This document shows positions 253 to 20,628 of a stretch of DNA of 64,000 nucleotides, in pieces. The translations under genes were made by a program, and so were the position numbers. The DNA is from Planctomycetota bacterium. GTDB taxonomy: Bacteria > Planctomycetota > J058. The notes beneath the pieces were generated by a model. It saw only the letters and a list, made by a program, of their open reading frames with translations. It made no database searches and was not told the DNA's origin. The stretch lies in assembly GCA_019636275.1 (NCBI GenBank), contig JAHBXY010000023.1, positions 1,509 to 65,508 on the forward strand, in the 5' to 3' direction. The first letter of the stretch is position 1; the number at the start of each line of letters is the position of its first letter.

Positions 253-1080
253 TCAGTCGCGGTTGAACTCCGCGATCTCCTCGGCCGCGAGGTCACCGTC
301 GGCGCCGAGGACGGCCACCAGGCGGCAGCGGCCGCCGTTGTTGTAGGCCTCGAACACCGCCAGGTAGCGGTTGTAGTACAGCTCGTTCGAGTACGGGTAG
401 ATGGGCGGCTCGGTGAGCACCGCGCTCTGCAGGTTCGACCCGACGATCGTGGTCCACTTGCCCAGGCCGAACACGACCAGGACGCGGTCCGCGGGCACGA
501 CCGCGTTGCCGGCCGGGTTGGCCGCCGACGGCGGGGTGGGATAGATCGTGTTCAGGATCCGCTGGCCGGCCGCGTTGGCGGGGTTGATCGTGGCGAACAC
601 GTCGTCGGTCCCGTCGATCGGGTTCTGGACCGTGAACCCGTCGCTGTAGGGGATCGCCGTCGAGCCCACGTGGTCATAGACCGTCGTGATCCCGAGCCGC
701 GAGAGCGAGCGCGCCTGGTTCGCCGTGAGGCTGTCCGTCGACAGGATCAGCTTGCCGGCGCCGGTGGTGCCGACGAGGCCGGGGTCGAGGCCGCCCTGGC
801 CCGAGCCCGGCGCGCCGGGGACCTGCAGGCTGCGCGTGCCGGTAACGACGAGCGAGTCCCAGCGGTCGGGGTAGAAGTTGGTCGTCGCGCGGAAGGTCTG
901 GATCATGCGCGAGATGTTGCGCATGTCGAGCGCGGCGGAGGCCTTCTCCGCCTTGAGCTGCAGCACGTCGAGCTTGGTCACGGCCAGCCCCGCGATGGCG
1001 ACCAGGATCGCCAGCACGACGATGAGCTCGAGGAGCGTGAAGCCTGCGCGGTCCCCGCGCCGGTGGGTCATGGAACGCAT
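253..1080 (-). CDS. Prepilin-type N-terminal cleavage/methylation protein (large pilin/pseudopilin)
   Basis: Class III signal RRGDRAG|FTLLELIVVLAILVAIAGL. ATG at 1080 follows GGAGAGG. The longer ORF-track start runs through promoter/operator DNA. Confidence 0.9.
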   Translation of the reverse strand: MRSMTHRRGDRAGFTLLELIVVLAILVAIAGLAVTKLDVLQLKAEKASAALDMRNISRMIQTFRATTNFYPDRWDSLVVTGTRSLQVPGAPGSGQGGLDPGLVGTTGAGKLILSTDSLTANQARSLSRLGITTVYDHVGSTAIPYSDGFTVQNPIDGTDDVFATINPANAAGQRILNTIYPTPPSAANPAGNAVVPADRVLVVFGLGKWTTIVGSNLQSAVLTEPPIYPYSNELYYNRYLAVFEAYNNGGRCRLVAVLGADGDLAAEEIAEFNRD

Positions 1081-1158
1081 CGAGTCCTCTCCTGTGCCGC
1101 CGAGCGAGGCCCGCCATGGGCCCGCGCCGCGGCCGTCCAGCATTGCCTTCGAGTTCTT

Positions 1159-1177
1159 GAGACTGCGACTCATTCTC
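1159..1177. promoter_or_regulatory. Fur-box-like operator, degenerate copy (GAGACT GCGACT C ATTCTC)
   Basis: Has the same 6-6-1-6 hexamer layout as the classical Fur box GATAAT GATAAT C ATTATC and is similar to the copies at 1219, 16334 and 20568. Confidence 0.6.
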
Positions 1178-1218
1178 AGGAGGCGAGACGTCACTTCGAA
1201 CGCCCGTCCGCCCACGTC

Positions 1219-1239
1219 GAGATTGAGACTCAGTCTCAA
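1219..1239. promoter_or_regulatory. Fur-box-like operator GAGATTGAGACTCAGTCTCAA
   Basis: Perfect 8-1-8 palindrome TTGAGACT-C-AGTCTCAA. The 19-mer 1219-1237 is identical to 16334-16352 and 20568-20586. Confidence 0.8.
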
Positions 1240-1407: not shown

Positions 1408-2754
1408 TCAGCCGCCGGGGCTCCGCAGCCGGCGGGGCAGGCCCTCGAAGCGCTCGACGGCGTGGTACGCGCCGGCGGCGCGGGCGACCTGCAGGGCCTG
1501 CTCGGCCCGCCGCGCGACCTCGTCGGCGCCGGCGCGCCCAGCCGCGAGCTCGAGGAGGGCGACGGTCACGTCGCGCCGGCAGGCCAGGTCGGCCCCTGCT
1601 TCGCCGGGGAGCGACAGGCCGCGGACCGGCGCCAGGGCCGCCTCGGCGTCGTCGAGGCGCCGCGCGCGCAGGAGGACGCCCGCGCGGTTGACCGCCTGGC
1701 GCAGGCGGCCCGCGGGGTCGCCGGCCTCGAGGAACAGCCGCTCCGCGGCGGCGAACTCCTCGGCGGCGGCGTCGACCCGGCCCAGGTCGACGAGGAGCTC
1801 CGCCACGAGCGCCCGCGCGCTGGCCTCGGTCACGAGGTCGCGCGCGGCCCTGGCGTCCTCGACGGCTCGCTGCCCCTCCGCCAGGGCGGGCTCGGCCTGC
1901 GCGGCGAGGTGGTGCGCCCGGGCCAGCAGCAGGCGGTCGCCCGCCGGCGGGACGGGGGCGCTCCGCTGGAGCGTGGCCGCGTGGCGCAGCGCCACGAGGG
2001 GGAGCCGGCGCTCGAGCGCGGCCCGGCTCAACGCGCGGAGCCAGGCCGGCGGCGCGGCCGCCGAGGCCTCCCGCTCCTGCCGGAGCGCCTCCAGCCGCTC
2101 GAGGGCCGTGGCGTGCCACGTGACCCCGTCGTCGCGGCGCGTCGCGGCGCCCCACTCGGCGACGACGGCCTCCGGGTCGGCCGCCGACGAGAAGAAGAGC
2201 GCCTGCGTCCGCTGCACCGCGGTCCCGACGAAGGCGCCGGGGAGCGGGGCGCCGAGCGCCGCCTCGACCAGGCGCACCTCCGCCGACCACACCGGATCGC
2301 GGACCTCGGCGAACCCGCGCCCGGCCCGGCGCAGGCGGCCGCGGCCCGGCCGGTCGGCCGCGCGCAGGGCCAGGGCGCGACCGACCGCCGCGCGCCCACG
2401 CGCGTGCGCGGCCGGGGCCGACCGCCGCGCCCGGAGGCTGTCCAGGTAGGCCACCTGCGGCGGGCGCTGCCGGGCGAAGGCATCCGCGAGCGCCTCGAGC
2501 GTCGCGTCGGCGTCGGCCTGGAGGAACAGCGCGTGCGCGTGCTCGGGCTCGTCGCGGACCAGGGCCGCCTGGCAGGCGGGGGCGCCCGACTGCGCCTCGA
2601 ACCTGGCCCCGAACGCCGCCACGAGCCCCGCGTCGGGCGCCAGCCACGGGTCGACCGTGACCGCCGGCGCGGCCGGGGCCTCCGGCGCCGCCGGCGGCGC
2701 GCTCGCGCAGCCCGCGAGGGCCACGGCCAGGAGCAGCAGACGTCGGCGCATCAT
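1408..2754 (-). CDS. TPR-like helical lipoprotein (candidate secretin pilotin/accessory protein)
   Basis: MMRRRLLLLAVALAG|C lipobox and Ala/Leu-rich TPR-like helices at the C-terminus. ATGA overlap with the secretin stop codon. Confidence 0.7.
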   Translation of the reverse strand: MMRRRLLLLAVALAGCASAPPAAPEAPAAPAVTVDPWLAPDAGLVAAFGARFEAQSGAPACQAALVRDEPEHAHALFLQADADATLEALADAFARQRPPQVAYLDSLRARRSAPAAHARGRAAVGRALALRAADRPGRGRLRRAGRGFAEVRDPVWSAEVRLVEAALGAPLPGAFVGTAVQRTQALFFSSAADPEAVVAEWGAATRRDDGVTWHATALERLEALRQEREASAAAPPAWLRALSRAALERRLPLVALRHAATLQRSAPVPPAGDRLLLARAHHLAAQAEPALAEGQRAVEDARAARDLVTEASARALVAELLVDLGRVDAAAEEFAAAERLFLEAGDPAGRLRQAVNRAGVLLRARRLDDAEAALAPVRGLSLPGEAGADLACRRDVTVALLELAAGRAGADEVARRAEQALQVARAAGAYHAVERFEGLPRRLRSPGG

Positions 2755-4691
2755 CGGATCGGCTCCGGCGCGGGGCGCAGGTAGTCGTCGAACAGCAGCC
2801 GGTAGCCCTCGGCGCCCGGCACGTCGCCGCGCCGGTAGCGCTGCAGGGCCGCGTCGCCCAGGTCGTGGTAGGGGTGCAGCGACAGCGTCTCCATCGTCCG
2901 GCGCGAGCGCTGCGCCGCCTCGGCCGGCGTCGTGAGCACGTGCGGCGTGATGAGCAGCACGAGCTCCGTCTGCACCTCGGCGCGCTGGGTCGAGCCGAAC
3001 AGCCAGCCGATCACCGGCAGGTTCATGAGGAACGGGATCCCGCTGCGCTGGTCGCGCAGCTCCTTGCGGATCAGGCCGCCCACCGCCAGCGTCAGCCCGT
3101 CCTTGGCGACCACGGTGCCCTGCAGGCTGGCCGTGCTCACCGTGTCGATGTTCACGAGCTGCACGCCGCCCGTGACGCCGCCGGCGGGGACCGGCAGCTG
3201 CGCGCCGCCGGCGTTCACCGTGGACACGTCCTGCACGATCGTCAGCGCCACCGTGCGGTCGGCGTTGATCCGGGGGACGATCCGGAGCGTGTTGCCCACG
3301 TCGCGCAGGTCGACCGTCGGCACGACCTGGCTGGCGACGACGCCGTTGGTGGTGGTCGTCTGCAGCTCGAAGCTGCGCACCAGCGGCCGCTCCTCGCCGA
3401 TGAAGATGCGCGAGACCTCCTGGTTGGCGCACAGGAGCAGCGGCGTGGCCAGCACGGACACGCGCCCCTCGCGCTGCAGCGCCTGGATGCGCACGCGCAC
3501 GTGCTCGTTGAGGTACTGGTAGACGAGCGTGCCCCCGGCCAGCGGGAAGTTGCCCAGCCCGGCCAGGTTCTCGAGGCCCATGGCCTGGCTCAGGTCGAGC
3601 GGGTTCACCGGCTTGCCGGTGGGGAGGTTGCCGCGCGGCGGGTCCGCGACCCAGTCCACGTCGAGCGCCGTCTCGCGCCCGTCGTCGAGGCGCACCTCGA
3701 GGATCTTCATCTCGAGGAGCACCTGCGCCAGCGGCCGGTCGAGGTCCTGCACGAGCGCCTCGACCTCGCGCATGGCCGCCTCGTCGGCCGTGCGCACGAC
3801 GAGCACGTTCTGCCGCCGGTTCACGGCCACCCAGATCGGCGGCCGCTCCTCGGTCAGGCGGTCCAGGTCCTCGCCCGACGCCCGGCCGCCGTCGACCCGC
3901 ACGCGCGAGAGCTGGTCGGCGGTGACGCGGTCGGCGAGGCGCTCGGCGGCCTGCTCCGCGGCGGCGGAGGCGCGGCCGCCCTGGCCGAAGCCGCCCTGGC
4001 CGAACCCGCCCCCGAACCCGCCCCCGAAGTTGTTGTTGATCCCGCCGCCCACGTTCGTCGTGAAGGGCCCGCCGGCGCCGCCGCCGCCCAGCCCGCCGCC
4101 GAAGCCGCCGAAGCCGCCGCCGAAGCCGCCCTGTCCGAAGCCGCCCTGGCCGAAGCCGCCCTGGCCGAAGCCGCCCTGGCCGAAGCCGCCCCCGAACCCG
4201 CCGGCGAAGGCGTCGGCCGAGAGCGAGTCGAAGATCCCGTACGACAGGGCCACGCGGTCGCCGAAGACGTCGCGGAGCGTCTGGGCGATCGACAGGGCGT
4301 TGGGCTGCAGGAGGGTGAAGACCTTGACCGCCGGCTCGCGCCGCACGATCAGGTCCTCGCGCAGCTCCTCGGCCGTCATGATGCGCAGGACGCGGTCCTC
4401 CTCGCGGTACCACAGGCCCGAGGCCTTGCACATGGCCTCGACGGCCGTGCGCACGGGCACGCCCTGGAGGAGCAGGGTCACCGGCCGCCCGCCGGCCTCG
4501 GGCGTGGCGATGATGTTCCACCCGGTCGTCTCGGCGAGGAGCCGCGCCGCGTCGGCGACGGTGGCCTCGCGCAGATCGAGCCGCTCGACGAGCGGGCCGG
4601 CTGCTGGGGCGGCCTCCTGGGCGCGCGCGAGGAGCGCGCCGCCGAGGAGGACGAAGGAGAGGGCCGTGAGGCGCAGCGCGGGGGGCCTCAC
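2751..4691 (-). CDS. Secretin (GspD/PilQ family) with Gly/Phe-rich insertion
   Basis: Signal peptide, N-domains (LDLREATV..; RQNVLVVRT..EVEALVQDLDRP), QVLLEMKILEV, and the C-terminal secretin motif GGLIR..SGIPFLMNLPVIGWLFGS..ELVLLITPHV. GTGA overlap with the upstream gene. Confidence 0.9.
   Translation of the reverse strand: MRPPALRLTALSFVLLGGALLARAQEAAPAAGPLVERLDLREATVADAARLLAETTGWNIIATPEAGGRPVTLLLQGVPVRTAVEAMCKASGLWYREEDRVLRIMTAEELREDLIVRREPAVKVFTLLQPNALSIAQTLRDVFGDRVALSYGIFDSLSADAFAGGFGGGFGQGGFGQGGFGQGGFGQGGFGGGFGGFGGGLGGGGAGGPFTTNVGGGINNNFGGGFGGGFGQGGFGQGGRASAAAEQAAERLADRVTADQLSRVRVDGGRASGEDLDRLTEERPPIWVAVNRRQNVLVVRTADEAAMREVEALVQDLDRPLAQVLLEMKILEVRLDDGRETALDVDWVADPPRGNLPTGKPVNPLDLSQAMGLENLAGLGNFPLAGGTLVYQYLNEHVRVRIQALQREGRVSVLATPLLLCANQEVSRIFIGEERPLVRSFELQTTTTNGVVASQVVPTVDLRDVGNTLRIVPRINADRTVALTIVQDVSTVNAGGAQLPVPAGGVTGGVQLVNIDTVSTASLQGTVVAKDGLTLAVGGLIRKELRDQRSGIPFLMNLPVIGWLFGSTQRAEVQTELVLLITPHVLTTPAEAAQRSRRTMETLSLHPYHDLGDAALQRYRRGDVPGAEGYRLLFDDYLRPAPEPIR
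3975..4208 (-). repeat. GGFGQ/GGFG low-complexity tandem repeat inside the secretin
   Basis: 15-bp units GCCGCCCTGGCCGAA are repeated, encoding 12 FG dipeptides in about 78 aa. Confidence 0.9.
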
Positions 4692-5068
4692 CTGACCGTC
4701 ACCGTGGCGCCCTCGAGGGCGCCGATGCGCAGGACCACGCCGCGGTCGCCGATGGTCACCACGTCCAGGGGGACCTCGACGCCGTCCTTGACGATCGAGA
4801 TGCGGTCGCCCGGCCGGACGACGTGGACGGGCCCGGCGCCCACGGCCAGGAGGGCGGCCGGCGGGCGGCCCTCGAGGCGCAGCGTCCCGCGCACGGCCAG
4901 CGGGGGCAGGGCGCCGAACAGCGACTGCGACCACACCGCGGCCGGGTCGCCGCCGAGGGCCTGCGGGGCGGCGAACGGGTCGTCGGGCGGGGGCCAGTCC
5001 TGGGCGCGCGCGAGCGAGAGCGCGAGCGCGGCGACGAGCGGGGCGAGGACGAGCAGGCGGGGGGTCAT
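4688..5068 (-). CDS. Small secreted protein, PilP/GspC-HR-like
   Basis: Signal peptide, DPF motif, then LAVRGTL..ALL..HVVRPGDRI. It lies directly upstream of the secretin, as pilP does. Confidence 0.55.
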   Translation of the reverse strand: MTPRLLVLAPLVAALALSLARAQDWPPPDDPFAAPQALGGDPAAVWSQSLFGALPPLAVRGTLRLEGRPPAALLAVGAGPVHVVRPGDRISIVKDGVEVPLDVVTIGDRGVVLRIGALEGATVTVR

Positions 5069-5081
5069 GCGGCTCCCGGGG

Positions 5082-6284
5082 TCAACGACGGGCGACCAGG
5101 CTGAAGAGGGCCTGGAAGAAGCTGATGTAGACGAAGCCGACCATGCCGCCGACGACGACGATGATGACCGGCTCGATGAAGGTGGCGAGGGTGCGCACGT
5201 GCGTCTGCAGGCGGCGGTCGTGGAACTCGCCCAGGCGCAGGAGCACGTCGTCGAGGGCGCCCGTCTCCTCGCCCACGCGCACGACCTGCGTGGTCATGGG
5301 CGAGACCACCGGGTGCTCGAGGCTGGGGGCCAGCGCCAACCCCTGGACCACCCGCTCGCGCGCGCGCAGGACCACGCCGGCGTAGGCGCGGTTGGTGAAC
5401 GAGTCGGCGAGGAGGCGCAGCGACTCGACCAGCGGCAGGCCGCTGCGCAGGAGGAGCCCGAGCGTGCGCCCCAGGTGCGCCTGGGCGGCGGCGCGCAGGA
5501 GGCCGCCGACGACGGGGACCGAGAGGGCCGCCCGGTCGGTGAGGCGGCGGCCCGCGTCGATGCGGCGCACGACGACGAACAGCGCCAGCGCGGCGAGCGC
5601 GCCCAGCAGCAGGGCCGCCCCCCACTGCTGCATGAAGGCGGAGACGTCCATGAGGAGCTGCGTGCTCCAGGGGAGCGCCGCGCCGCGTCCGGCGAGGAAG
5701 CTGACGAACTTGGGGAGCACCTTCACGGTCAGGAACCAGAAGGTGGCGCAGGAGACGAGCACGACCAGCGACGGGTAGGCGAGGCTCGTGAGGAGCTGCG
5801 CCTGGATCGCCGCGCGGCGCTCGACGAACTCCGCCGAGCGCTCGAGGGCGTCGGGCAGCTCGCCCGTGGCCTCGGCCGTGCGCACGAGGTGCACGGCGAT
5901 CTCGGGGAACAGCGCCCGCTCCGCCTGGAGCCCGTCCGAGAGCGGCCGGCCGCTGCTGACGGTGCGCGTGAGGCGCCGGGCGGCGCGGCGCAGGCCCACG
6001 CGGTTGGCCGCCGCCTCGAGGGTCTCCAGCGCCTGGAGCAGCGTCAGCCCCGTGCGCAGCATGAGCGCGAGCTGGGTGAGGAACAGGACCACGTCGGCGC
6101 TGCGCACGTATTCCAGGCGCCAGGCCCGGTCGGCGTCGGGCTCGGCGGCCTGGCCGGCGGCGAGCTCGAGCGGGAACAGCCCGCGCGCGCGGAGGGCGGC
6201 GGCGGCGCCGGCGGCGTCCGGAGCGTCCACCCCGCCCCGGACCTCCGCCCCGCGCTCGTCGAGGGCCACGTAGTCGATCCGCAC
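5082..6284 (-). CDS. Type II secretion F / PilC inner-membrane platform protein
   Basis: FLTQLALMLRTGLTLLQAL, AEATGELPDALER, SLAYP, VGEETGALDDVL and IEPVIIVVVG are the two T2SSF domains. Confidence 0.93.
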   Translation of the reverse strand: MRIDYVALDERGAEVRGGVDAPDAAGAAAALRARGLFPLELAAGQAAEPDADRAWRLEYVRSADVVLFLTQLALMLRTGLTLLQALETLEAAANRVGLRRAARRLTRTVSSGRPLSDGLQAERALFPEIAVHLVRTAEATGELPDALERSAEFVERRAAIQAQLLTSLAYPSLVVLVSCATFWFLTVKVLPKFVSFLAGRGAALPWSTQLLMDVSAFMQQWGAALLLGALAALALFVVVRRIDAGRRLTDRAALSVPVVGGLLRAAAQAHLGRTLGLLLRSGLPLVESLRLLADSFTNRAYAGVVLRARERVVQGLALAPSLEHPVVSPMTTQVVRVGEETGALDDVLLRLGEFHDRRLQTHVRTLATFIEPVIIVVVGGMVGFVYISFFQALFSLVARR

Positions 6285-6305: not shown

Positions 6306-7916
6306 CTACGCCCGCGCCTCGAGCGCCTCGGCCAGGCTGGTGCTCCCGTCGAGCACCTTGCGCAGGGCGTCCTCGGCCAGCGTCGGGGCGCCGCCCGCGC
6401 GCGCCAGCCGGGCGACCTCGTCGGCGCCGGCGCCGCGGGCCACGAGCGCCGCGACCGCCTCGTCGACCCACAGCGCCTCGACCACGGCCAGCCGGCCGCG
6501 GTAGCCCGTGCCCAGGCAGGCCGGGCAGCCCGCCGGCTCGAACACGGGTCTCTCGTTATCGCGGCCGCCTTCGCTGCCGACGAGGCGCGCCAGCGCCGCG
6601 GCGCCCGCCGTGGTCGGGGCGCGGCAGGCGCACAGCCGGCGCACGAGGCGCTGCGCGATCGCCGCGCGCAGGGTGGCGCTGACGAGGAACGGCTCGCAGC
6701 CCAGGTCGACGAGCCGCGCGGGGGCGCCGGCCGCGCGGTTGGCGTGGAGCGAGGCCAGGACCAGGTGCCCGGTCATGGCCGCCTTCACGGCGACGTCGGC
6801 GGTCTCCTCGTCGCGGACCTCGCCGACCATGAGGACGTCGGGGTCGTGGCGCAGGAGCGAGCGCAGGGCGCGCGCGAACGTGACCTTGCCGGCGCGGTCC
6901 ACGCCGATCTGCGTGATCCCGGGGATGAGGAACTCGACCGGGTCCTCGACGGTCATGATGTTCAGCTCGGGCGCGCGCACCTCGCGCAGGGCCGCGTAGA
7001 GGGTCGTGGTCTTGCCCGAGCCGGTGGGGCCCGTGAGCAGGACCATCCCGTGCGGCTCGTCGAGCGCGAGGCGGAAGCGCCGCAGGTCGTCGGGCGAGAA
7101 GCCGAGGACCTCGAGCGTCAGCTCGCGCGTCTCGACGCCGAGGAGGCGCAGCGTGGCCCGCTCGCCGTGGCGGGTGGGGATCGTGGCCAGCCGCACGTCG
7201 AAGGCCTGCTCCTCGTGGCGGTGCTGGAAGCCGCCGTCCTGCGGCTCGCGGCGCTCGGCGATGTCGAGCCCGCCGAGGACCTTCACGCGCGAGAGGAGCT
7301 GCTGCGCCTCCTCCTGGCCCAGCGCGCCGCCGAAGGGCATGAGCCGCCCGTCGACGCGCAGGCGCACGTGCAGCCCGTCCTCCTGCGGGTCGAGGTGCAC
7401 GTCCGAGGCGCGGTGCAGCCAGGCCTGGCGCAGGAGGTCGTCGAGGAAGCTCACCGCGTCCCAGGCCGCGACCGCCTCGCCCTCGGGCGCGCGCACGTGG
7501 CGCCGGACCGCCGCCTGCAACGCACCCGGGTCGGCGATGGCCAGGGCCAGCGGCGCGTCGAGGACGCGGCGCAGGGTCTCGAGGGTGGCCGCGTCGTCCG
7601 GGTCGGCGGTGGCCACGAGCACGGCCTCGCCCTGGCGGCGCAGCGGGAGCACCGCCTTGCGCAGGACGAGGCGGGGCGGGGCGCGGCCGACGAGCGCGGC
7701 GTCGACGACCAGGTCGGCCGCCTCGAGGAACGGCAGGCCGCGCTCGCGCGCCAGGGCCCGGTAGAACGCCTCGCGCGGGACGCGCAGGCGCTCGGTGGCC
7801 ACCTCCAGCGGGTCGCGCCGGGTGCGGCGCGCCTCCTCGAGGATCTCCGCCTCGGCGGGGCGGCGCATCATGCCGGTGCCGGCGGCCGCGCGGAGCAGGG
7901 CGGGCGGGTTGCTCAT
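6306..7916 (-). CDS. GspE/PilB extension ATPase
   Basis: ASDVHLDP, LDIAERREPQDG, Walker A GPTGSGKTTT, EDPVE, LRHDPDVLMVGEVRD, GHLVLASLHAN, and the Cys motif with GYRGR. ATGA-coupled to the upstream gene. Confidence 0.93.
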   Translation of the reverse strand: MSNPPALLRAAAGTGMMRRPAEAEILEEARRTRRDPLEVATERLRVPREAFYRALARERGLPFLEAADLVVDAALVGRAPPRLVLRKAVLPLRRQGEAVLVATADPDDAATLETLRRVLDAPLALAIADPGALQAAVRRHVRAPEGEAVAAWDAVSFLDDLLRQAWLHRASDVHLDPQEDGLHVRLRVDGRLMPFGGALGQEEAQQLLSRVKVLGGLDIAERREPQDGGFQHRHEEQAFDVRLATIPTRHGERATLRLLGVETRELTLEVLGFSPDDLRRFRLALDEPHGMVLLTGPTGSGKTTTLYAALREVRAPELNIMTVEDPVEFLIPGITQIGVDRAGKVTFARALRSLLRHDPDVLMVGEVRDEETADVAVKAAMTGHLVLASLHANRAAGAPARLVDLGCEPFLVSATLRAAIAQRLVRRLCACRAPTTAGAAALARLVGSEGGRDNERPVFEPAGCPACLGTGYRGRLAVVEALWVDEAVAALVARGAGADEVARLARAGGAPTLAEDALRKVLDGSTSLAEALEARA

Positions 7917-12808: not shown

Positions 12809-13696
12809 TCAGCCCTGACGGCTGTTGTTCGGCAGCGACTCGTTGAACTGCTGGATGGAGTAGTTGGGGAAGCGGCCGTAGCTGTCGGACACCCCGACGA
12901 GCTGCGCGCGCTCCCCGCTGGCGAAGACGGCGAAGTAGGCGATGTAGCGGCCGTAGTAGGACCCGTCGCAGCCGGGGTAGATCGGCGCGCTGAGCATCGT
13001 GTCGGGGATGAGGCTGGACCGCGGCCCCACCCCCGTGGCCACCAGGGCGACGACGCCGTCGGGCAGCGCGCCGTTGAGGTGCGGGTAGATCGTCCGCGTG
13101 ATCCCGTTGACCGGGACGGCCGCGTCGCCGTTGGTCGTCGAGACGACGCGGGCGACGAAGCAGCCGCCGACGCCGTTGCTCAGCTCCCGCAGGTTCAGCC
13201 CGCTGTTGTTGCAGTTCGCGCCGGCGGTCCAGGGGATGTGGTCGCTGAGCTGGGCGAAGCCCGAGCGGGTGAACGAGCGCGAGAAGTTGCCCGCGGGCGC
13301 GCTCAGAGCCGCCAGGTCGTCCATGACGAGCTGCGCGAACACGTTCGTGCCCTGCGCGCCGCTCAGCGGCAGGCCCCAGCCCTGGTTCTCGGAGGTCACG
13401 CCGGTCGTCGCGCCGACGCGGGTCGTGTTGACCATGACCGACGTGGGCGCCCCGAGCCCCGGCCCCTCGAGCAGCGAGTCCAGGCGCATGGGCATGCGCT
13501 TCTGCAGCACGAAGTAGAGGCTGATCTGGTTGGCGATGTCCTGCTGGTTCTTGGCCGTGGCGCTCATGTCCGCCGAGCGACCGAGCATGGCGATCTGGCT
13601 GATCACCAGGCCCGCGAGCGTCGCCAGGATGATCAGCACGAGGACCATCTCGATGAGCGTGAAGCCGCGGCGGCGGCGCGAGAGGCTGAGCGTCAT
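12809..13696 (-). CDS. Prepilin-type protein (paralogue of 253..1080)
   Basis: RRRRG|FTLIEMVLVLIILATLAGLV. It shares P..DSL and the C-terminal PIYP..YY.RY.A.F..G.R..LV.V with the pilin at 253..1080. AGGAG precedes the start. Confidence 0.9.
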   Translation of the reverse strand: MTLSLSRRRRGFTLIEMVLVLIILATLAGLVISQIAMLGRSADMSATAKNQQDIANQISLYFVLQKRMPMRLDSLLEGPGLGAPTSVMVNTTRVGATTGVTSENQGWGLPLSGAQGTNVFAQLVMDDLAALSAPAGNFSRSFTRSGFAQLSDHIPWTAGANCNNSGLNLRELSNGVGGCFVARVVSTTNGDAAVPVNGITRTIYPHLNGALPDGVVALVATGVGPRSSLIPDTMLSAPIYPGCDGSYYGRYIAYFAVFASGERAQLVGVSDSYGRFPNYSIQQFNESLPNNSRQG

Positions 13697-13865: not shown

Positions 13866-15833
13866 TCAACGCACCGTCAGGACGTGGACCTCGAAGGCCC
13901 GCGCCCCCTCCACGTTCGCCGTGTAGAGGAGGACCCGCTCGCCCCAGGGCAGCGCCGTCATGTGCCGGGTCGAGACGGGGAGCGTGCACAGCGTCGACCA
14001 GGCGCCGGTCGCCGGGTCGAACACCTCGACGGTCGCGTTCGCCTCGAACTCGCCGGGCGCGTCGGCCCGGGGCGACGTCCCGCCGAGGAGGTAGAGCTTG
14101 CCGCCCAGGGCCACCATCTCCGGCGAGATCCGCGGGCGCGCGGGCGCCGGCGCCTTGGACCACGAGCGCGTCTTCAGGTCCAGGACGTCCACGTCGGGGA
14201 CGAGCGTGAAGCCCTCGCGCATGCCGCCGACCAGGTAGTACCGGCCGTCGACGACGGCGCCGCCGAAGGCGCGGCGCGGCGTGGGGACCGTGAGGCCGGC
14301 CGGGGCGAAGGTCTCGCCGGCCTTCAGGTCCCACTCCAGGACCTCCGCCGGGAACTGGAACTGCTGCTCGCGCGGGCGCGAGCCGTCGAAGTCGACCCCG
14401 CCCACGACCAGCAGCTTGCCCTCGTGCTGCACGAGGCCGAACTGCGTGCGCGCGACGGGCAGGGCGGCCTTCGTGGGGATCCACTCCCGCTTGCCCAGGT
14501 GGAGCTGGAACACCGTCGGCCAGGCCCTCGCGCCCTGCCCTTCGTTGTTGAAGCCGCCCACGAACAGCGCCCGGTCGTCCTGACCGAGGGACCCGCCGCC
14601 GGCGACGAGCGTCGAGGACATCGTCTGCCGGCGCTCGGGGAGGGCGGGCAGGCGCTCGACGCGCAGCGAGCCCAGGTGGATCCGCCAGGACTCCGCGAGG
14701 AAGTTCTCCGGCTTGAAGTCGTGCTGACCGAGGCTGTTGTTGCCGCCGACCACGTGCAGGGCGTTGCGGTGCAGCGCCACGCCCTGGCGGTTCTTGGCCA
14801 GGCCCGGCGAGGGGACGACGAACGACACGAGCGACGGGCCCTGCGGGCGCAGGTCGACGGCCTCGCACACGCGCAGGTGCCCGCCGTCGGACGAGCCGCC
14901 GACCGCCAGCAGCGCCTCCGGGCCCGTGGCCACGAGGCGGTGGAAGTAGCGCGGGAAGGCCAGCGTGGCCACCTCCTCCCACTCGGGGGCGTCGCCCTGG
15001 AGGCCGAGGCGGTGCACGGCGCTGCGGACCCCGGAGGCGAGCAGGTCGTCGCCGATCACGGCCGCGGCCACGCCGAAGCCGTTGAACGGCAGGTCGGGGC
15101 CGTCCGACCACGCCCCGGTCGCCGGGTCGAACACCGACACGGCGCGCGTCCCGGTCTCGCTGTCCGAGGGCATGCCGCCCAGGGCCCAGAGCTTGCCGTC
15201 GACGACGGCCAGGGCCAGCGCCCGGCGCTCGAACGGCGTCCCGGGGAAGGGCTCCCAGGCGAGCGGCTGCTGCGTCAGGTCGAGCGACCAGGCCGTGCGG
15301 TGCCAGGTGACGAGGTCGCCCTGCAGGCTCCAGCCGCCGACGACGACCAGCCGCTCGCCGAGCACCGCCACGTCGTGCGACGAGCGCGGCTCGGGCAGCG
15401 GCGGCAGCGCCTCCCAGGTGCGGGCCAGCGGGTCGTAGCGCGAGGCGCTGGCCACCGACCACAGGTCGTCGGGCTGGTCGGCGCGGTTGCGGGCCGAGAG
15501 GCCGCCGATGCGGTAGACCTTGCCGCCGTGCGCCACGACGGCGGGGCTCTGCAGGGGCTGCTGCATGGGCAGCGCCTCCCAGGAGCGGCCGTCGAGCAGG
15601 TTCAGCCGGTAGAAGCCCTTCGACAGCGTGTCGGCCGAGTGGTGGTGCACGGCGCCGGCGTGGCCGCCGTAGACGTAGATCCAGTCGCCGTCACGCGCCG
15701 CGCCGAAGCTGGCCAGCGGCTCGGGCAGGAGCGGCCACTCGACGCGCCGGAGCGCGTCGGCGGCCGCCGTGGGCGCGAGGCCCGCGAGGGCAGCGGCCAG
15801 GGCGAGGCCGAGCTGGAAGCGTGAGGCGTTCAT
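13866..15833 (-). CDS. Secreted double kelch beta-propeller protein
   Basis: Signal peptide (..AAALAGLAPTAAA) and about 12 kelch-like repeats (IYVYGG, VYRIGG, LVVVGG, LWALGG, LHVVGG, YYLVGG, LYLLGG; YDP..TW). Confidence 0.88.
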   Translation of the reverse strand: MNASRFQLGLALAAALAGLAPTAAADALRRVEWPLLPEPLASFGAARDGDWIYVYGGHAGAVHHHSADTLSKGFYRLNLLDGRSWEALPMQQPLQSPAVVAHGGKVYRIGGLSARNRADQPDDLWSVASASRYDPLARTWEALPPLPEPRSSHDVAVLGERLVVVGGWSLQGDLVTWHRTAWSLDLTQQPLAWEPFPGTPFERRALALAVVDGKLWALGGMPSDSETGTRAVSVFDPATGAWSDGPDLPFNGFGVAAAVIGDDLLASGVRSAVHRLGLQGDAPEWEEVATLAFPRYFHRLVATGPEALLAVGGSSDGGHLRVCEAVDLRPQGPSLVSFVVPSPGLAKNRQGVALHRNALHVVGGNNSLGQHDFKPENFLAESWRIHLGSLRVERLPALPERRQTMSSTLVAGGGSLGQDDRALFVGGFNNEGQGARAWPTVFQLHLGKREWIPTKAALPVARTQFGLVQHEGKLLVVGGVDFDGSRPREQQFQFPAEVLEWDLKAGETFAPAGLTVPTPRRAFGGAVVDGRYYLVGGMREGFTLVPDVDVLDLKTRSWSKAPAPARPRISPEMVALGGKLYLLGGTSPRADAPGEFEANATVEVFDPATGAWSTLCTLPVSTRHMTALPWGERVLLYTANVEGARAFEVHVLTVR

Positions 15834-16312
15834 GCCGTGAGCTCCTCATGGGCGGCGGGCGGGGTCTGGATCCGCCCGGCGAGGGAGCGGACGCCGTCGA
15901 AGGCCAGGGCGCCGCGCAGGTAGATGCGCAGGCCGTCGGCGGCGGGGTCGGGGCTGGTGAGGACGGCCCAGAGGCGGGCGGCCAGGTGGGGCACGGTCCA
16001 CAGGTCGCGGCCGACGAGGTCGCCGCCGAACGCCTCGAGCCCGTAGGCCTGCAGCGCGTCGATCGCGCCGCGGTGCATCAGGTCGAGCAGCCGCTCGAGC
16101 TGGAGCGCCAGCGGGGTCTCGGCGTGGCAGGCGCGGTGCACCGCCGCGACCAGGGCGCGCTCGTCGGGGCAGCGGCAGGCGGGCAGCTCGACCCCGGCCG
16201 CGCGGGCCAGGTTCGACAGCTCGCGCCCGTCGAAGGTGAGCAGGAGCACCGCGTCGAGGAGCGTGCACTCCACCTGCCAGATCCGTAGCCGGGTCGCCTC
16301 GCGCTCGGTCAT
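15830..16312 (-). CDS. Hypothetical cytoplasmic protein, first gene of the pilus operon (resembles N-terminal region of long DUF2325 proteins)
   Basis: GGAGG RBS and ATGA overlap with the kelch gene. The RIW..C, L.R.LD..H and LWA..T.P pattern recalls DUF2325-associated N-termini (from memory, unverified). Confidence 0.6.
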   Translation of the reverse strand: MTEREATRLRIWQVECTLLDAVLLLTFDGRELSNLARAAGVELPACRCPDERALVAAVHRACHAETPLALQLERLLDLMHRGAIDALQAYGLEAFGGDLVGRDLWTVPHLAARLWAVLTSPDPAADGLRIYLRGALAFDGVRSLAGRIQTPPAAHEELTA

Positions 16313-16333
16313 CACGTCCTCCGGGTCACGCAT

Positions 16334-16524: not shown

Positions 16525-17016
16525 ATGACCGACGCACGACGACGGGCGGCCCTGATCGGCGGGCTCGCCCTCCTGCTGCTCCTCTACCTTCACGCGACGG
16601 ATCCTGCGCCTCCGGTCGCCCGGCTGGGAAACGACGGGGGCGCCTGGCCGATCGGCGCGCTGAAGACGATCAGCACCTCGCAGACGGTCTTCCGCGAGTG
16701 GGACCACGACCGCAACGGCGTCCTCGACTACGGGACGCTGCGCCAGCTCTCGGACGCCAACCTCATCGACCCCCTCCTGGGCAGCGGCGAGAAGGACGGC
16801 TACCGCTTCGAGACCCGGCCGTCGCCCACGACGCCCGAGTTCCTCTGGTTCGCCGTGGCCAACCCGATCCGGCCGGGCACGACCGGCGACCGCTACTTCT
16901 GCACGAACCACTCGGGCGTCATCTACTACACCGGCGTCCAGGGCCGGGCGATCGCCCTCGACGACGGCGGGCCGGAGTGCGCGGTCCCGACGACCATGCT
17001 CCCGGTCGGGAAGTAG
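16525..17016 (+). CDS. Small membrane-anchored pilin-like/DUF2950-like protein
   Basis: N-terminal TM helix followed by IGALKTISTSQTVFRE.D.D.NGVLDYG.L..L..LID..LGSG.KDGYRF..A.P..PG.TGDRYF. It has no G|F cleavage site. Confidence 0.6.
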   Translation: MTDARRRAALIGGLALLLLLYLHATDPAPPVARLGNDGGAWPIGALKTISTSQTVFREWDHDRNGVLDYGTLRQLSDANLIDPLLGSGEKDGYRFETRPSPTTPEFLWFAVANPIRPGTTGDRYFCTNHSGVIYYTGVQGRAIALDDGGPECAVPTTMLPVGK

Positions 17017-17020: not shown

Positions 17021-18028
17021 TCAGCCGGGCAGCGCCCAGCACGGCCCGACGACGACCACCCGCCCGGCGTCGCCCGCGCGCGCGCCGAGCGGCGCCTCGG
17101 CCAGCACCTCGCGCTCGCCCGCCCGGACGCGCACCCGCGCGCCACGGCCGACGAAGGCCCGGGCCACCACGCGCGCGTCGCCCGCGCCCGCCTCGAAGCG
17201 CGCCTGCTCGGGGCGCACGAGGAGCGTCACGGGCCCGGTCCGCGCCGCGACGAGCGCCACCTCGCCGAAGGGCGTGCTCGCCGACTCGCCCCGCGCCTCG
17301 GCCGGCACGAAGGCGCACGGGCCGAGGCGCGCCGCGATCGCCGCGTCGACCGGCCGGGCGTAGACGACCTCGGGCGCGTCGCACTGCACGATCCGCCCGG
17401 GTGGCCCCTCGAGCACGGCCACGCGGTCGGCGAGGGTCATGGCGTCCTGCGCGTCGTGCGTGACCAGGAGCGCGCTGGCGCCCTGCCCGGCGAGGAGCGC
17501 GCGCACCTCCTGGCCCAGGTCGAGGCGGCGCGGCGCGTCGACGTTGGCGAACGGCTCGTCGAGGAGCAGCACGTGCGGCTGCGCCGCCAGCGCGCGGGCG
17601 AGCGCCACGCGCTGTTGCTGGCCTCCGGAGAGCTGCGCCGGCCGGCGCGCCGCCAGGTCCGCCAGGCCGGTCGCCGCGAGGAGCGCGTCGACGCGCGCCG
17701 GGTCGGGGCAGCCGAAGGCGACGTTGTCGCGCACGGTCATCGCCGGGAAGAGCGCGTACTCCTGGAACACGAGGCCCACCCCGCGCCGCTCGGCCGGCAC
17801 GCGCTCGCGCCCGCCCTCGGCGACGACCGCGCCGCCGACGACCACGCGACCCCGGGCCGGCGTCGTCAGCCCGGCCAGGCAGCGCAGGAGCGTCGTCTTG
17901 CCCGAGCCCGAGGCGCCGACGAGCGCCACGAGCTCGCCCTGCGCGAGCGTCAGGTCGACGCCCTCGAGCACCGGCGCGCCGGGCGCGTAGGCGTGCCCCA
18001 GCCCCTCGACGACCAGCGGCAGCGTCAC
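17021..18028 (-). CDS. fbpC: Fe3+ ABC transporter ATP-binding subunit (FbpC/FutC-like)
   Basis: GASGSGKT, VPAERRGVGLVFQEYALFP, LSGGQQQRVALARALA, LLLDEPF and VTHD, with a TOBE-like tail. Confidence 0.88.
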   Translation of the reverse strand: MTLPLVVEGLGHAYAPGAPVLEGVDLTLAQGELVALVGASGSGKTTLLRCLAGLTTPARGRVVVGGAVVAEGGRERVPAERRGVGLVFQEYALFPAMTVRDNVAFGCPDPARVDALLAATGLADLAARRPAQLSGGQQQRVALARALAAQPHVLLLDEPFANVDAPRRLDLGQEVRALLAGQGASALLVTHDAQDAMTLADRVAVLEGPPGRIVQCDAPEVVYARPVDAAIAARLGPCAFVPAEARGESASTPFGEVALVAARTGPVTLLVRPEQARFEAGAGDARVVARAFVGRGARVRVRAGEREVLAEAPLGARAGDAGRVVVVGPCWALPG

Positions 18029-19545
18029 CGCTCACCTCCCCAGCGCGCCGAGAGCGCGAACGCCGCCAGGCACACGCCGACGAGCACGAGGCCGGCGGCG
18101 CCCGCGTCGTGCAGGAGCGCCTCCTCGAGCCGGTCGTAGACGCGAAACGACAGCGTCCGCGCCCCGGCCGCCGGGCCGAGGAGCAGCGTGATCGGCAGCT
18201 CCTTGGCCACCTGCGCCACGACGAGGCCCGCGGCGGCCGCGACCCCCGGCGCGACGGCCGGCAGCACGACGCGCACGAGCCGCCGCGCGCGCCCCGCGCC
18301 GAGGACGCGCGCCGACTCGTCCTGCCGCGGGTCGAACGCGGCCGCCGCCGTGCGCAGGGCGGCGTGCGCCTCGGGCAGGAAGCGGGCCACGTAGCCGGCG
18401 AGGAGGAGCGCCCCGGCCTCGCCCAGCGCGCGGTAGGCGCCGCCGCCGGTCAGGGCCAGGGCCAGGCGCAGGACGCCGAACGCCACGAGCACGCCGGGCA
18501 GGGCGTGGCCGAGGAGCACCGCCAGGTCGACGCCACGCCGCCCGTGCCGCCCGGCCGCCCAGCCGGGCGCCCAGGCCAGGAGCACCGTGACGAGGGCCGC
18601 GACGGCGCCGACGCGCAGGGTGATCGCCACCGGCTCGCCGAGCGGGGCGAACGGCAGCCCGCGCGACCAGCCGTCGACGACCCACAGCGCCAGCGTCGCC
18701 ACCGGCAGGAGGCAGCCCAGGCCGGCCGTGAGCCCGTGGGCGACGAGCGCCGCGGCGAACCCCGCCCGGCCGAGCGGGCGGCGCTCGACCGGCCGCGGGT
18801 TGGCGACGCCGGCCTCGGCCACGCGCCCGTGGGCCAGGCGCCCGAGGACGAGCAGCAGCAACGTGGCCGCGAGCAGGAGCCCGCCCAGCACGGCGGCGTC
18901 GCCCAGGCGCTGCTGCGCGACCGCCTGGTAGATCCGCCAGGTGAGCACCGGCGCGTCGAGGACCGCCACGGCGCCGAAGTCGGAGAGCACGTAGAGCTGC
19001 ACGAGGAGCGCCGAGGCCACGAGCGCCGGCCGCAGCCGCGGCAGGACGACCGCCCGGAAGGCCGCCGCGCGCGAGGCGCCGAGCGTGCGCGCCGCCTCCT
19101 CCTCGGCCGCCGGGACGCGCGCCAGGGCGGCGCCGACGATCACCTGCGCCAGCGGCGCCGTCGCCAGCGTGAGCACGACCGCCGCCGCGCCCAGGCCGAC
19201 GAAGGCCGGCAGGCCGAGCGCGCCGCCGGGTCCGAGCGCGTGGCGCAGCGCGCCCGCGAGGAGGAAGCTGGGGAGCGCCAGCGGCAGGAGCGAGAGGACG
19301 ACGAGGACCCGCCGCCCGGGGTAGTCGGCGCGCCGGTCGAGCCAGGCGAGCGCCGCGCCGAGGGGCACCGCGAGCGCCGAGACGACGACGGCCAGGCCGA
19401 CGCTCCTGAGGACGAGCGGCCCGAGCCCCGCCGGCGGCGCGCGCCACGGGTCGCCGCCGGCGAGCCCGACCGCCAGCCCGACGACGGGCAGGAGCGGCGC
19501 CGCCGCGCCCGCGGCCACGAGGGCCCACCCGCCGGCGCGGGTCAC
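18025..19545 (-). CDS. fbpB: Fe3+ ABC transporter permease (FbpB/FutB-like)
   Basis: Two permease domains with EEEAARTLGAS and DESARVLGA loops, SDFGAV and KELPITLLL. GTGA-coupled. Confidence 0.88.
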   Translation of the reverse strand: MTRAGGWALVAAGAAAPLLPVVGLAVGLAGGDPWRAPPAGLGPLVLRSVGLAVVVSALAVPLGAALAWLDRRADYPGRRVLVVLSLLPLALPSFLLAGALRHALGPGGALGLPAFVGLGAAAVVLTLATAPLAQVIVGAALARVPAAEEEAARTLGASRAAAFRAVVLPRLRPALVASALLVQLYVLSDFGAVAVLDAPVLTWRIYQAVAQQRLGDAAVLGGLLLAATLLLLVLGRLAHGRVAEAGVANPRPVERRPLGRAGFAAALVAHGLTAGLGCLLPVATLALWVVDGWSRGLPFAPLGEPVAITLRVGAVAALVTVLLAWAPGWAAGRHGRRGVDLAVLLGHALPGVLVAFGVLRLALALTGGGAYRALGEAGALLLAGYVARFLPEAHAALRTAAAAFDPRQDESARVLGAGRARRLVRVVLPAVAPGVAAAAGLVVAQVAKELPITLLLGPAAGARTLSFRVYDRLEEALLHDAGAAGLVLVGVCLAAFALSARWGGER

Positions 19546-20540
19546 TGCAGCCCGAGCGCCCGCAGGAGCTCGAGCGTCGGCTCGAGGTCGGTCAGGTGCA
19601 CCGGGTCGACCGTGGCCAGGCCCAGGCGCTCGAGCGGCGCCACGTCGGGGTGCGTCGGCACGCCGGGGACGACGGGGTACTCGAACGTCTCGCGGGCGAA
19701 GTACTCCTGCGCCTCGTCGGAGAGGAGGAAGGCCACGAGGCGCCGCGCCTCCGCCTCGACCGGGCTGCCGGCGCGCACGGCGGCGCCCGAGAGCATGAGC
19801 AGGTTCCCGGCGTCGCCCGCCTCGGCGAAGCTCGAGTTGACGAGCGTCGAGTCCGGCCGCTTCAGGCGGTGCAGGTAGTAGTGGTTCACCCAGCCCAGCT
19901 CGACCTCGCCCCGGGCGACGGCCTCGACGATCGGGCCGTTCTTGGCGTAGGCGCGCGGCTCGTTGGCGGTCATCGCCTGGAGCCAGGCCCGCGCGCGCTC
20001 CTCGCCCCACAGGTGGCGCAAGGCGCTCACGTGCGCGTGCAGGCTGGCGTTGCCCGGCGCCCAGCCCACGCGCCCCTTCCAGCGCGGGTCCGCGAGGTCC
20101 TCGAGGCGGCGCGGCAGGTCCTCGGGCTTCACGCGCGCGGCGTCGTGCACGAGGACGCGCGCGCGCCCGCTCGTGCCCACCCAGCGGCCGCCCGGGTCGC
20201 GGAAGCGCGCGTCGGCGCGCGCGAGGACGTCGTCGGGCAGCGGCGCGAGGAGGTCGGCGATCGCGCCCAGCGCGCCGCACTCCTGCGCGATCACCACGTC
20301 GGCCGGGCTGCGGTCGCCCTCGACCCGGAGCTGCGCGGCCAGCGTCGGCGTGCCGGAGTAGCGCACGTCGAGCGCCACGCCCGTGCGCTCCTGGTAGCGG
20401 GCGAGCAGCGGCGCGAGCAGCGCCTCGCCCCGGCCGCAGTAGACGACGACCCGGCCCGAGGTCGACGGCGTCGACGGCTCGGCCGGGCAGCCGGCGAGGA
20501 GGACGGCGAGGGCGAGCAGGCTCGACGAAGGACGGATCAC
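19542..20540 (-). CDS. fbpA: Fe3+ ABC transporter substrate-binding lipoprotein (FbpA/FutA-like)
   Basis: Lipobox LLAG|C, EGDRSPADV, WVGTSGRARV, WAPGNAS, and the Fe-ligand VNHYY motif followed by TFEYP. Confidence 0.88.
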   Translation of the reverse strand: MIRPSSSLLALAVLLAGCPAEPSTPSTSGRVVVYCGRGEALLAPLLARYQERTGVALDVRYSGTPTLAAQLRVEGDRSPADVVIAQECGALGAIADLLAPLPDDVLARADARFRDPGGRWVGTSGRARVLVHDAARVKPEDLPRRLEDLADPRWKGRVGWAPGNASLHAHVSALRHLWGEERARAWLQAMTANEPRAYAKNGPIVEAVARGEVELGWVNHYYLHRLKRPDSTLVNSSFAEAGDAGNLLMLSGAAVRAGSPVEAEARRLVAFLLSDEAQEYFARETFEYPVVPGVPTHPDVAPLERLGLATVDPVHLTDLEPTLELLRALGLQ

Positions 20541-20567
20541 GGCGGTCCTCGGGGAGGAGGGAAAGGT

Positions 20568-20628
20568 GAGATTGAGACTCAGTCTCAACGAGCCCTGCCT
20601 TGGACCATGGCGGGGCTTCCGTCGTCAA
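20568..20628 (-). promoter_or_regulatory. Promoter of the iron ABC operon: -35 TTGACG (20628-20623) plus operator GAGATTGAGACTCAGTCTCAA (20568-20588)
   Basis: The operator is identical to 1219-1239, with the same 40-bp -35-to-operator offset as the other two promoters. Confidence 0.8.

Follow-up and report, generated by a model that had tools for sequence, protein, structure and literature searches.

The gene cluster analysed here combines features of type IVa pili and type II secretion systems, and lies beside an FbpABC-type ferric iron transporter in a 64-kb stretch of planctomycete DNA (hereafter "the window": positions 1509-65508 of contig C146 in genome G000, a 9.33 Mb draft in 315 contigs with 75.6% G+C and 90% completeness). 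Like the type IVa pili (T4aP: PilA, PilBTC and PilMNOPQ, as in Myxococcus, Pseudomonas and Thermus), the cluster encodes prepilins with a GFTLIE motif, a PilB-type ATPase, PilT, PilC, PilM/PilN-like parts and a secretin. It departs from them in a PilM-PilN fusion, in PilB and PilQ scores that fall short of equivalog level, in the absence of PilD from the cluster, and in pilins (260-310 amino acids) that lack a known C-terminal domain; an orphan protein, g14, and a kelch protein stand at its head, behind a Fur-type box. With the type II secretion systems (T2SS: GspC-M, including Hxc) it shares its best matches to GspE, GspF and GspD, a GspL architecture and a secreted protein encoded in the cluster; it differs from them in its sub-equivalog scores, in the presence of PilT, and in having four pilins of which none reaches GspG or GspH. 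Set beside known Fur regulons, it is the 15 bp 7-1-7 palindrome over the promoters of feoAB, fbpABC, bfd, ferritin-like and PepSY_TM genes, together with a Fur gene, that is familiar; the predicted targets differ in that they include an entire filament machine, DUF1559 pilin-like genes and kelch proteins.

Type IV pilins have been linked to iron acquisition in Synechocystis (PilA1; PMC4144903) and in Legionella (the major pilin; PMC13170364), and Synechocystis, like the window, has an Fe3+ transporter of the FutABC/FbpABC type. The accessible parts of these reports present general pilins with a side role in iron acquisition, and mention neither a dedicated machine nor a kelch partner nor a Fur box in common. 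A second line of comparison runs through the kelch protein, whose relatives stand behind a TonB-dependent receptor and HmuY in Myxococcota and are fused to DUF4198 in Planctomycetia; the family of genomes to which the window belongs encodes a pilus machine, not a receptor, beside kelch. A DUF4198 protein of Neisseria, Zcp, is described in the part of its report available to us as a periplasmic zinc-capture protein (PMC12663993), and a kelch gene next to EfeU has been noted in Leptospirillum. A third precedent comes from the same phylum: the pili-like fibres of planctomycetal crateriform structures bind dextran, which is then internalised, and the authors speculate on a role in uptake (PMC5394234, accessible in part). 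Fibre-bound substrate capture is common to both cases; there the substrate is a polysaccharide, not iron, and the genes for the fibres are not named in the accessible text.

The literature searched holds no description of a filament machine under a Fur box with a kelch partner, or of iron-regulated DUF1559 genes, with the proviso that supplementary regulon tables might hold entries. Searching for DUF1559 together with iron turned up only stress work on Rhodopirellula (in the portion of that literature available), the combination of Fur regulon, type II secretion and pseudopilin yielded nothing relevant, and a 2025 review of the Planctomycetota contains none of the words TonB, siderophore or DUF1559. 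A sequence-only reading of the window had offered the view that no described system has this organisation; the accessible literature, with only the Synechocystis and Legionella links between pilins and iron, agrees with it. Next to nothing has been described of how Planctomycetota acquire iron, or of what the DUF1559 genes, pilin-like and hundreds in number, do for them.

Because of the G+C content of the genome, genes were called by third-position G+C (GC3) together with reading frame and translation, and were then compared with Pfam and NCBIfam. From 20540 down to 253 almost all of them lie on the minus strand, in the order fbpA-fbpB-fbpC, g14, kelch, g12-g11-g10, g9, g8, PilT, PilB/GspE, PilC/GspF, g4, secretin, g2, g1. 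Profiles and translations confirm what had been proposed for 253-20628: a type IV filament cluster next to an FbpABC transporter. From g12 to g2 the genes overlap or are spaced by at most 41 bp (the start of g2 is not fixed); the gaps from kelch to g12 and from g2 to g1 measure 170 and 330 bp, respectively.

What ties these genes to iron is an operator. Scanning with TTGAGACTNAGTCTCAA and allowing up to 3 mismatches finds 6 sites in the window, against 0.01 expected, and not one of 100 shuffles reaches 6. All six are confined to three promoter regions: three lie upstream of g1 (1157-1173, 1223-1239 and 1286-1302), two in the divergent region between g14 and g15 (16338-16354 and 16416-16432), and one 32 nt upstream of the fbpA start, where it is shared with the divergent g19 (20572-20588). 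The claim that the promoters of the pilus cluster, the extra pilin g1 and the iron transporter carry one and the same palindromic operator is upheld by these numbers. The operator core is a 7-1-7 palindrome, TGAGA(A/C)TnA(G/T)TCTCA. Fur binds 7-1-7 sites of the type TGA(T/G)AAT-n-ATT(A/C)TCA, and one operator copy reads TGAGAATCATTCTCA, one symmetrical position away from that consensus. In five promoters the elements follow one plan: a TTGAC(C/T)-like hexamer, then, 17-19 nt on, a second hexamer and, after 8-11 nt more, the operator. A repressor bound 8-11 nt past the second, -10-like hexamer would therefore cover the transcription start. The promoter-like site of g1 (TTGACC-17-TAGAGT, 1279-1251 on the minus strand), which a consensus scanner found independently, is bracketed by the three operators.

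In the entire genome the same tolerance yields 12 matches, 7 of them at this locus. One lies 19 nt before feoA-feoB, and two overlapping matches precede a PepSY_TM gene that is followed by a paralogue of g14 (36% identical); the other two, with three mismatches each (one inside 16S rRNA, one at a gene end), look like chance. The good matches outside the locus are thus those before feoAB and PepSY_TM, as the anticipated association of the operator with iron genes across the genome would have it. A canonical Fur is encoded on contig C133 (PF01475 at 128.5 bits, with the HHDH and CxxC motifs). The genome is well supplied with filament systems of other kinds: 13 PilT-family genes above cut-off, about 10 ATPases of the PilB/GspE type, at least 7 other secretin-like matches and two prepilin peptidases. 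The cluster in the window is the only one of the pilus type that has the box, which would make it a dedicated extra system.

The association is also seen among relatives. Eleven genomes make up the family (homologues of g9 occur in all 10 of the others and in none of 30 genomes outside it, in a strict first look that may miss weak matches). At up to 1 mismatch the 15-mer box occurs in 11 of 11, at 1-8 sites each, 42 in total, against 2 for the reversed pattern. The flanks were annotated by tblastn with the window proteins, FeoAB and the PepSY protein, by eye or with Pfam: outside G000 there are 34 sites, and what follows is a pilin, g14 or kelch unit at 19 of them, feoAB at 7, fbpA at 2 and a PepSY-like gene at 1, while 5 stand before other genes or at contig ends. 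Counted by genome, and with G000 included, the box precedes g14/kelch or pilin units in all 11, feoAB in 8 and fbpA in 3. The start of the machine cluster is assembled in 9 genomes (the contigs of G005 and G009 begin inside it), and in 6 of these, G000 (through g14-kelch), G002, G003, G004, G006 and G008, a box stands at or near its 5' end. The box of G003, G006 and G008 stands immediately before the opening pilin gene, from which tightly packed pilin and machine genes extend to the end of the contig; that of G004 immediately precedes g14, which leads just as tightly into pilin and machine genes to the limit of the contig.

Beyond the family the box was followed through the kelch protein. An alignment search restricted to one genome per species found 79 kelch loci, the nearest of them in metagenome-assembled genomes (MAGs) of Planctomycetota, the phylum to which this result assigns the organism of the window. 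Phycisphaerae, Isosphaeraceae and many Myxococcota have full-length homologues with two propellers (33-45% identical); Gimesia, Pirellulales, Singulisphaera and Acidobacteriota have versions with one. In the 6 kb upstream of kelch, TGAGANTNANTCTCA at up to 1 mismatch is found at 26 of the 79 loci and its reversed sequence at none; a same-strand prepilin motif is found upstream at 17, and both together at 14, where the pilin motif usually follows the box by about 170-230 bp. The Gimesia operon consists of the box, a DUF1559 pilin-like gene, a small lipoprotein, a DUF3386 protein and a DUF4198-kelch fusion, a plan that recurs in Pirellulales, Bythopirellula and Singulisphaera; two loci of the Phycisphaerae type have the box, a PEP-CTERM protein, an unknown, a prepilin and a double kelch. 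In Singulisphaera sp. PoT, whose genome is complete, there are 11 exact boxes (control: 0), of which 9 had their flanks scanned with Pfam; among the neighbours are two further DUF1559 pilins, a ferritin-like gene, an extracytoplasmic function (ECF) sigma factor and a PepSY_TM-like gene (26.7 bits against a cut-off of 28.8). A Gimesia MAG has 4 exact boxes (control: 0), with an Fer2_BFD protein and a DUF1559 pilin among their neighbours. On the strength of these Singulisphaera and Gimesia neighbours, the box is read as a marker of iron genes across the phylum, with pilin-like genes and kelch proteins as regular putative members of the set.

In Myxococcota the company of kelch is different. At all 5 loci tested the kelch homologue comes right after an HmuY-domain gene; a TonB-dependent receptor precedes the HmuY gene at 3 of the 5, and imelysin is nearby at 2. 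These loci are in general without this box (one of them, L085, has a box-like site before the receptor). The HmuY, receptor and imelysin neighbours suggest that the kelch family is tied to outer-membrane devices for iron or haem uptake in two phyla, with a partner that varies: Myxococcota pair it with a TonB-dependent receptor, Planctomycetia with a pilin-like protein and the family of the window with the full pilus machine. (An observation in its own right: loci L084, L085, L110, L111, L142 and L093 of Myxococcota have a conserved operon of a TonB-dependent receptor, a protein with several HmuY domains and a double-propeller kelch, with imelysin nearby, a candidate module for the uptake of haem or iron.)

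Taken together, these comparisons place under one Fur-type box a small predicted regulon that joins Fe2+ and Fe3+ transporters, PepSY_TM, kelch-g14, pilins and, in most members of the family, the machine. Membership of the locus in a Fur-type iron regulon is well supported as a prediction from sequence, and regulation by iron, taken by itself, we regard as very probable. The earlier proposal of co-regulation by a Fur-type operator has in this way gained strong support, from the feoAB, fbpA and pilin/g14/kelch units of the family, from the bfd, ferritin-like and PepSY_TM genes of the phylum and from the Fur gene. Actual binding by Fur, a response to iron, transcription of some 16 kb from the g14 promoter and every functional step are matters that we infer. 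At the level of comparative genomics the predicted association is solid; what the filament does is conjectural.

The machine itself deserves a closer look. Class III prepilins, a PilB/GspE ATPase with PilC/GspF, and a prepilin peptidase in the genome (two Peptidase_A24 matches, both outside the cluster) place it in the type IV filament superfamily. The probable major subunit is g12 (12809..13696, minus strand, as are all genes of the machine; N_methyl 28.7 bits, the cut-off being 21.2; orthologues 54-80% identical). The probably minor prepilins g11 (11997..12782) and g10 (11065..11991) follow, the latter with N_methyl at 25.4 bits and the former at 18.5, below the cut-off, with the GFTLIE motif present; the extra prepilin g1 (253..1080; 275 amino acids; N_methyl 26.4 bits), a paralogue of g12 at 29% identity, stands at the far end. 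None of the four reaches the NCBIfam cut-offs for GspG (31.5 against 88.85 bits) or GspH (24 against 80 bits). (A technical note on g12: the stretch 12762-13735 of the window also exists as a separate g12-only contig, with a depth of 88-175 against 4-14 for its neighbours, in three runs of one activated-sludge sample. Four runs of that sample, labelled metatranscriptomic and flagged as probably DNA, were kept as contigs; this is at most a hint of a separate abundant transcript, and was not used as evidence because contig depth cannot rank genes.)

Next in order comes g9 (9611..11068), which has no Pfam match. A profile of nine orthologues matches PilN of M. xanthus (3jc8, E 3.7e-7) with its C-terminal part, and Foldseek with an AlphaFold model (mean predicted local distance difference test, pLDDT, 68) aligns its N-terminal part to PilM (5eoy, E 3.2e-10) and EpsL/GspL (1yf5, E 1.3e-7); because of these two matches g9 is taken, on profile and model, to be a PilM-PilN fusion with the architecture of GspL. 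The rest of the alignment subcomplex is named by position. The bitopic g8 (9025..9609), at the PilO/GspM position, shows only weak matches to PilO chains (E 0.26-0.9), and the small exported g4 (4688..5068), at the PilP/GspC position, found no match in a profile search against the PDB; the labels "PilO" and "PilP-like" given to them earlier are thus reduced to statements about position. A start codon overlapping the g8 stop opens the gene for the PilT-family retraction ATPase (7913..9028), which at 384.8 bits lies above the TIGR01420 cut-off of 319.1. The assembly ATPase, of the PilB/GspE type with an MshEN N-domain (6306..7871; T2SSE 376.2 bits), scores 452 bits as GspE and 429 as PilB (TIGR02538), with equivalog cut-offs of 630 and 675.65; the platform protein PilC/GspF (5082..6284; T2SSF 173.8 bits) scores 283 as GspF (cut-off 424); and the secretin, with its Gly-rich linker (2751..4691; Pfam 121 bits), scores 172 as GspD (cut-off 351) and 132 as PilQ (TIGR02515; cut-off 284.35). 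The lipoprotein g2 (1408..2724, true start probably upstream of 2724) has an LAGC lipobox and is Ala-rich and helical, possibly made of tetratricopeptide repeats (TPR). Having been called a TPR lipoprotein outright, it keeps that label only tentatively, since among the window protein and 4 homologues scanned for TPR at most 2 of the 5 matched, and the window protein did not.

Where does this leave the classification? Equivalog level is missed by PilB and PilQ on the T4aP side and by GspD, GspE, GspF and GspG on the T2SS side; a retraction ATPase, expected of a T4aP and foreign to a T2SS, is encoded inside the cluster, and so is the GspL-type fusion expected of a T2SS. Judged by sequence, then, the machine belongs to the type IV filament superfamily and mixes T4aP features (PilT) with T2SS features (the GspL-type fusion and GspE/F/D-like scores).

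Two genes lead the cluster. The secreted kelch protein (13866..15833, minus strand) has 655 amino acids, a Sec signal peptide and, in the window version, no lipobox; kelch repeats span its full length and are read as two propellers, and alignment shows invariant His-rich motifs near the start of each half. (A prediction of its complex with the g12 pilin, residues 28-655 with 36-295, scored 0.00, which speaks neither for nor against an interaction.) The orphan g14 (15830..16312, minus strand; 160 amino acids) is cytoplasmic, having no signal peptide, and all-helical, with a predicted seven-helix fold (pLDDT 88). It has no match in Pfam or NCBIfam and none in the PDB by Foldseek at E<=0.001; its best Z in the VIA wide structure comparison is only 4.3, the Atlas offers just unnamed clusters (<=0.90), and its relatives among 5.8 billion proteins number 25, all unnamed. 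It keeps company with the kelch protein and PepSY_TM genes. Its invariant C16, H59, H63 and H80 prompt the guess that it may be a cytoplasmic metal- or cofactor-binding partner. (The g14 leader, 16312-16480 on the minus strand, is 87% identical in G001; between its two operators, at 16394-16363, lies a 9 bp G+C-rich hairpin with a T-run, and the fold of an 86 nt stretch has z -3.96. An attenuator is one possibility, a short RNA under Fur control another.)

On the iron side of the locus, FbpA (19542..20540, minus strand) is a match to solved ferric-binding proteins (7w3w, E 3.9e-64; Thermus FbpA, E 2e-57) and retains the aligned HYY. FbpA and FutA bind Fe3+ through a YY motif. With FbpB (18025..19518, minus strand; BPD_transp_1 in 2 stretches, a double-domain permease) and the ATPase FbpC (17021..18028, minus strand; ABC_tran 132 bits), the assignment of an FbpABC/FutABC-type transporter with tyrosine ligands is borne out.

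Why should an iron regulon contain a filament? The answer proposed here is that this is a type IV filament system induced by iron starvation within a Fur-type regulon, and that it serves the capture and delivery of iron; for that statement as a whole we would put the chances a little above even. Fur-Fe2+ would bind the 7-1-7 boxes over the transcription starts of the g14-kelch-pilus unit, g1, fbpABC, feoAB and PepSY_TM, and depletion of iron would derepress all the boxed units jointly. The machine (the GspE/PilB-type ATPase, PilC, the PilM-N fusion, the proteins at the PilO and PilP positions, the secretin and the lipoprotein) would then assemble filaments of g12 with g10, g11 and g1, which PilT, where present, would retract. 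In an organism nearly devoid of TonB-dependent receptors, the filament would take on the outer-membrane step of iron acquisition, catching particulate or colloidal Fe(III), or iron or haem on macromolecules, and carrying it as far as the surface or periplasm; handling of the delivered iron source there would be the task of the secreted kelch protein, and final import would fall to FbpABC (Fe3+) or to PepSY_TM with FeoAB (Fe2+). Four considerations favour capture and delivery: 1) the kelch partner occupies the place that TonB-dependent systems occupy in other phyla; 2) receptors of that type are nearly missing from the organism, the barrels in 9.3 Mb amounting to 2 matches, on contigs C261 and C196, with one TonB, on C261 with the receptor, and no box there (that the window itself has none, as had been noted, is confirmed); 3) the pairing of pilin with kelch is phylum-wide; and 4) planctomycete fibres bind and internalise dextran, according to the accessible part of that report (PMC5394234).

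Several observations weigh against this proposal. The 170 bp gap between kelch and g12 is free of boxes, and g12 and the machine may therefore have a promoter of their own. At the 5' end of the machine cluster in G001 (where only 320 bp are visible), G007 and G010 there is no box even at 4 mismatches, the box being found in these genomes only at separate pilin or g14-kelch units; the expected link between clusters and motif thus survives for 6 of 9 genomes and fails for three. Linkage to iron genes across relatives has fared similarly: it stands for the box, before feoAB and fbpA, and falls for the adjacency of transporter and machine: no genome but G000 and its congener G001 has FbpABC beside the g14 unit. 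That linkage is not conserved: in G005 the box, g14, kelch and fbpA-B-C are contiguous on one strand, with no machine in the unit. In other genomes kelch accompanies TonB-dependent receptors or fbpABC where there is no pilus machine, and so can do without the filament. Six of the 8 clusters that cover the region include PilT, those of G000, G001, G005, G007, G009 and G010; between the PilO-position gene and PilB of G003 and G008 it is missing, and retraction is therefore not a constant feature. A second, shorter Fur-family gene (74.8 bits, on C302) makes the identity of regulator and metal less certain, and none of the sequencing runs that carry the locus is recorded as RNA. The boldest step is the inward passage of iron sources through the secretin, which is pure inference, as is the hand-over of iron to FbpA.

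The rival that survives best reverses the direction of transport: an iron-regulated, T2SS-like pseudopilus would export kelch, or some other iron-scavenging exoprotein, with uptake left to other routes. Secretion systems controlled by nutrient starvation are known, Hxc of P. aeruginosa being the example, and the parts list has a T2SS flavour: the best family scores are those of GspE, GspF and GspD (452, 283 and 172 bits), the PilM-N fusion is built like GspL, and a kelch protein with a signal peptide, here not a lipoprotein, is encoded directly upstream of the pilins. Against this, every one of the T2SS scores falls under its equivalog cut-off, a PilT-family ATPase, which T2SS lack, belongs to six of the eight clusters, and four large pilins of 260-310 amino acids stand in place of the five pseudopilins GspG-K; furthermore, the kelch homologues of Myxococcota and of G005 sit in uptake operons that have no such machine. 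Export on its own is thus, in our estimation, unlikely.

One could also imagine that the filament brings no iron inward at all and serves a behaviour of starving cells, be it twitching, adhesion to particles or surfaces that bear iron, or the passing of electrons to Fe(III) minerals. In P. aeruginosa, twitching is induced when iron is limiting, and the window does encode a gene set of the type IV pilus kind, PilT included. PilA1 of Synechocystis aids growth on iron oxides (PMC4144903, as far as the accessible text goes), and in G004 the box also stands before a multihaem-cytochrome-like protein. With 13 PilT-family genes and other pilus clusters, the organism is already equipped for motility; the phylum-wide pairing of pilins with kelch or DUF4198-kelch proteins of a periplasmic type points to the handling of a substrate, and the cluster in the window has neither an aromatic-rich short pilin nor a cytochrome gene. 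We judge a purely behavioural role distinctly unlikely. The weakest rival, a looser regulation in which the box governs only g14-kelch, g1, fbpABC and feoAB and leaves the machine independent, or in which the regulator is of the Zur, PerR or Mur type and answers to another signal, would accommodate the box-free gap before g12, the three unboxed machine clusters and the second Fur-family gene (on C302, by eye rich in zinc-type genes, some 18 kb from the PepSY_TM box), yet is very unlikely in view of the boxes that directly precede the first pilin in G003, G006 and G008 or lead through g14 into the pilins in G004, of targets specific to iron (feoAB, fbpABC, bfd, ferritin-like), and of annotated sites among which no znuABC or ribosomal-paralogue target is seen.

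If capture and delivery by the filament is the right reading, how far might it extend? In its most ambitious form, Planctomycetota, mostly without TonB-dependent receptors, would use Fur-controlled, pilin-based devices as the iron gate of their outer membrane: for the most part single DUF1559 pilins with DUF4198-kelch, and in the family of the window a full retractile machine. Filaments would bind haem, ferric particles or macromolecules laden with iron and pull them through the secretin into an enlarged periplasm, where kelch, helped by its cytoplasmic Cys/His partner g14 and by PepSY_TM reductases, would release iron to FbpABC and FeoAB. This is a speculation that we think has little chance of proving correct in full; if true, it would amount to a TonB-independent, ATP-driven import route, and would tell us what some of the very numerous DUF1559 proteins do. 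A more modest version already has consequences. The locus and its conserved operator yield a testable hypothesis, namely that some pilin-type genes, a new kelch family and an orphan Cys/His protein take part in the response to iron starvation, joined in one lineage by a whole retractile filament machine; should the filament prove to be an uptake device, a new principle of outer-membrane import would stand beside TonB-dependent transport. Gimesia and Singulisphaera are genera with cultured members. The box-pilin-kelch operon is found in Gimesia MAGs and in Singulisphaera sp. PoT, so the prediction is testable in cultured relatives.

A few features of the surroundings can be added. On C302 (24000-37290, locus L069; by eye) COG0523-type GTPases, a His-rich cation diffusion facilitator (CDF) transporter and a P-type ATPase surround the unit of PepSY_TM and the g14 paralogue; the second Fur-family gene (L002) lies about 18 kb from the PepSY_TM box and is followed by an in-frame sequence resembling a Flp-type pilin. 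In G004 (locus L048, contig C515, position 4048) the operator overlaps the start of a 602-residue protein with weak multihaem cytochrome c matches, MtrC/MtrF-like domains among them.

Divergent from g14 is g15 (16525..17016, plus strand), a small exported or membrane protein of 163 amino acids without a Pfam family, of which the genome has at least 10 copies at 42-66% identity. Divergent from fbpA, in G001 as in the window, is g19 (20747..22147, plus strand), a sigma-54 response regulator of the NtrC type. The sigma-54 consensus at up to 2 mismatches gives no signal (6 found, 21 expected). By eye, an element TGGCAC-N8-GC (16440-16455, minus strand) can be made out 5 nt before the first g14 operator; it is invariant in G001 and has 3 mismatches to the sigma-54 consensus, and matches of that quality are common at this G+C.

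An Rfam scan of the window returned no family. The remainder of the window, 23509-64000, has no copy of the operator and no evident iron genes; it encodes a UbiB/ABC1 kinase, an AI-2E transporter, two SPFH/Band 7 proteins, a radical SAM protein with DUF2344, a Ser/Thr kinase with WD40 repeats and a MASE1-CHASE histidine kinase.

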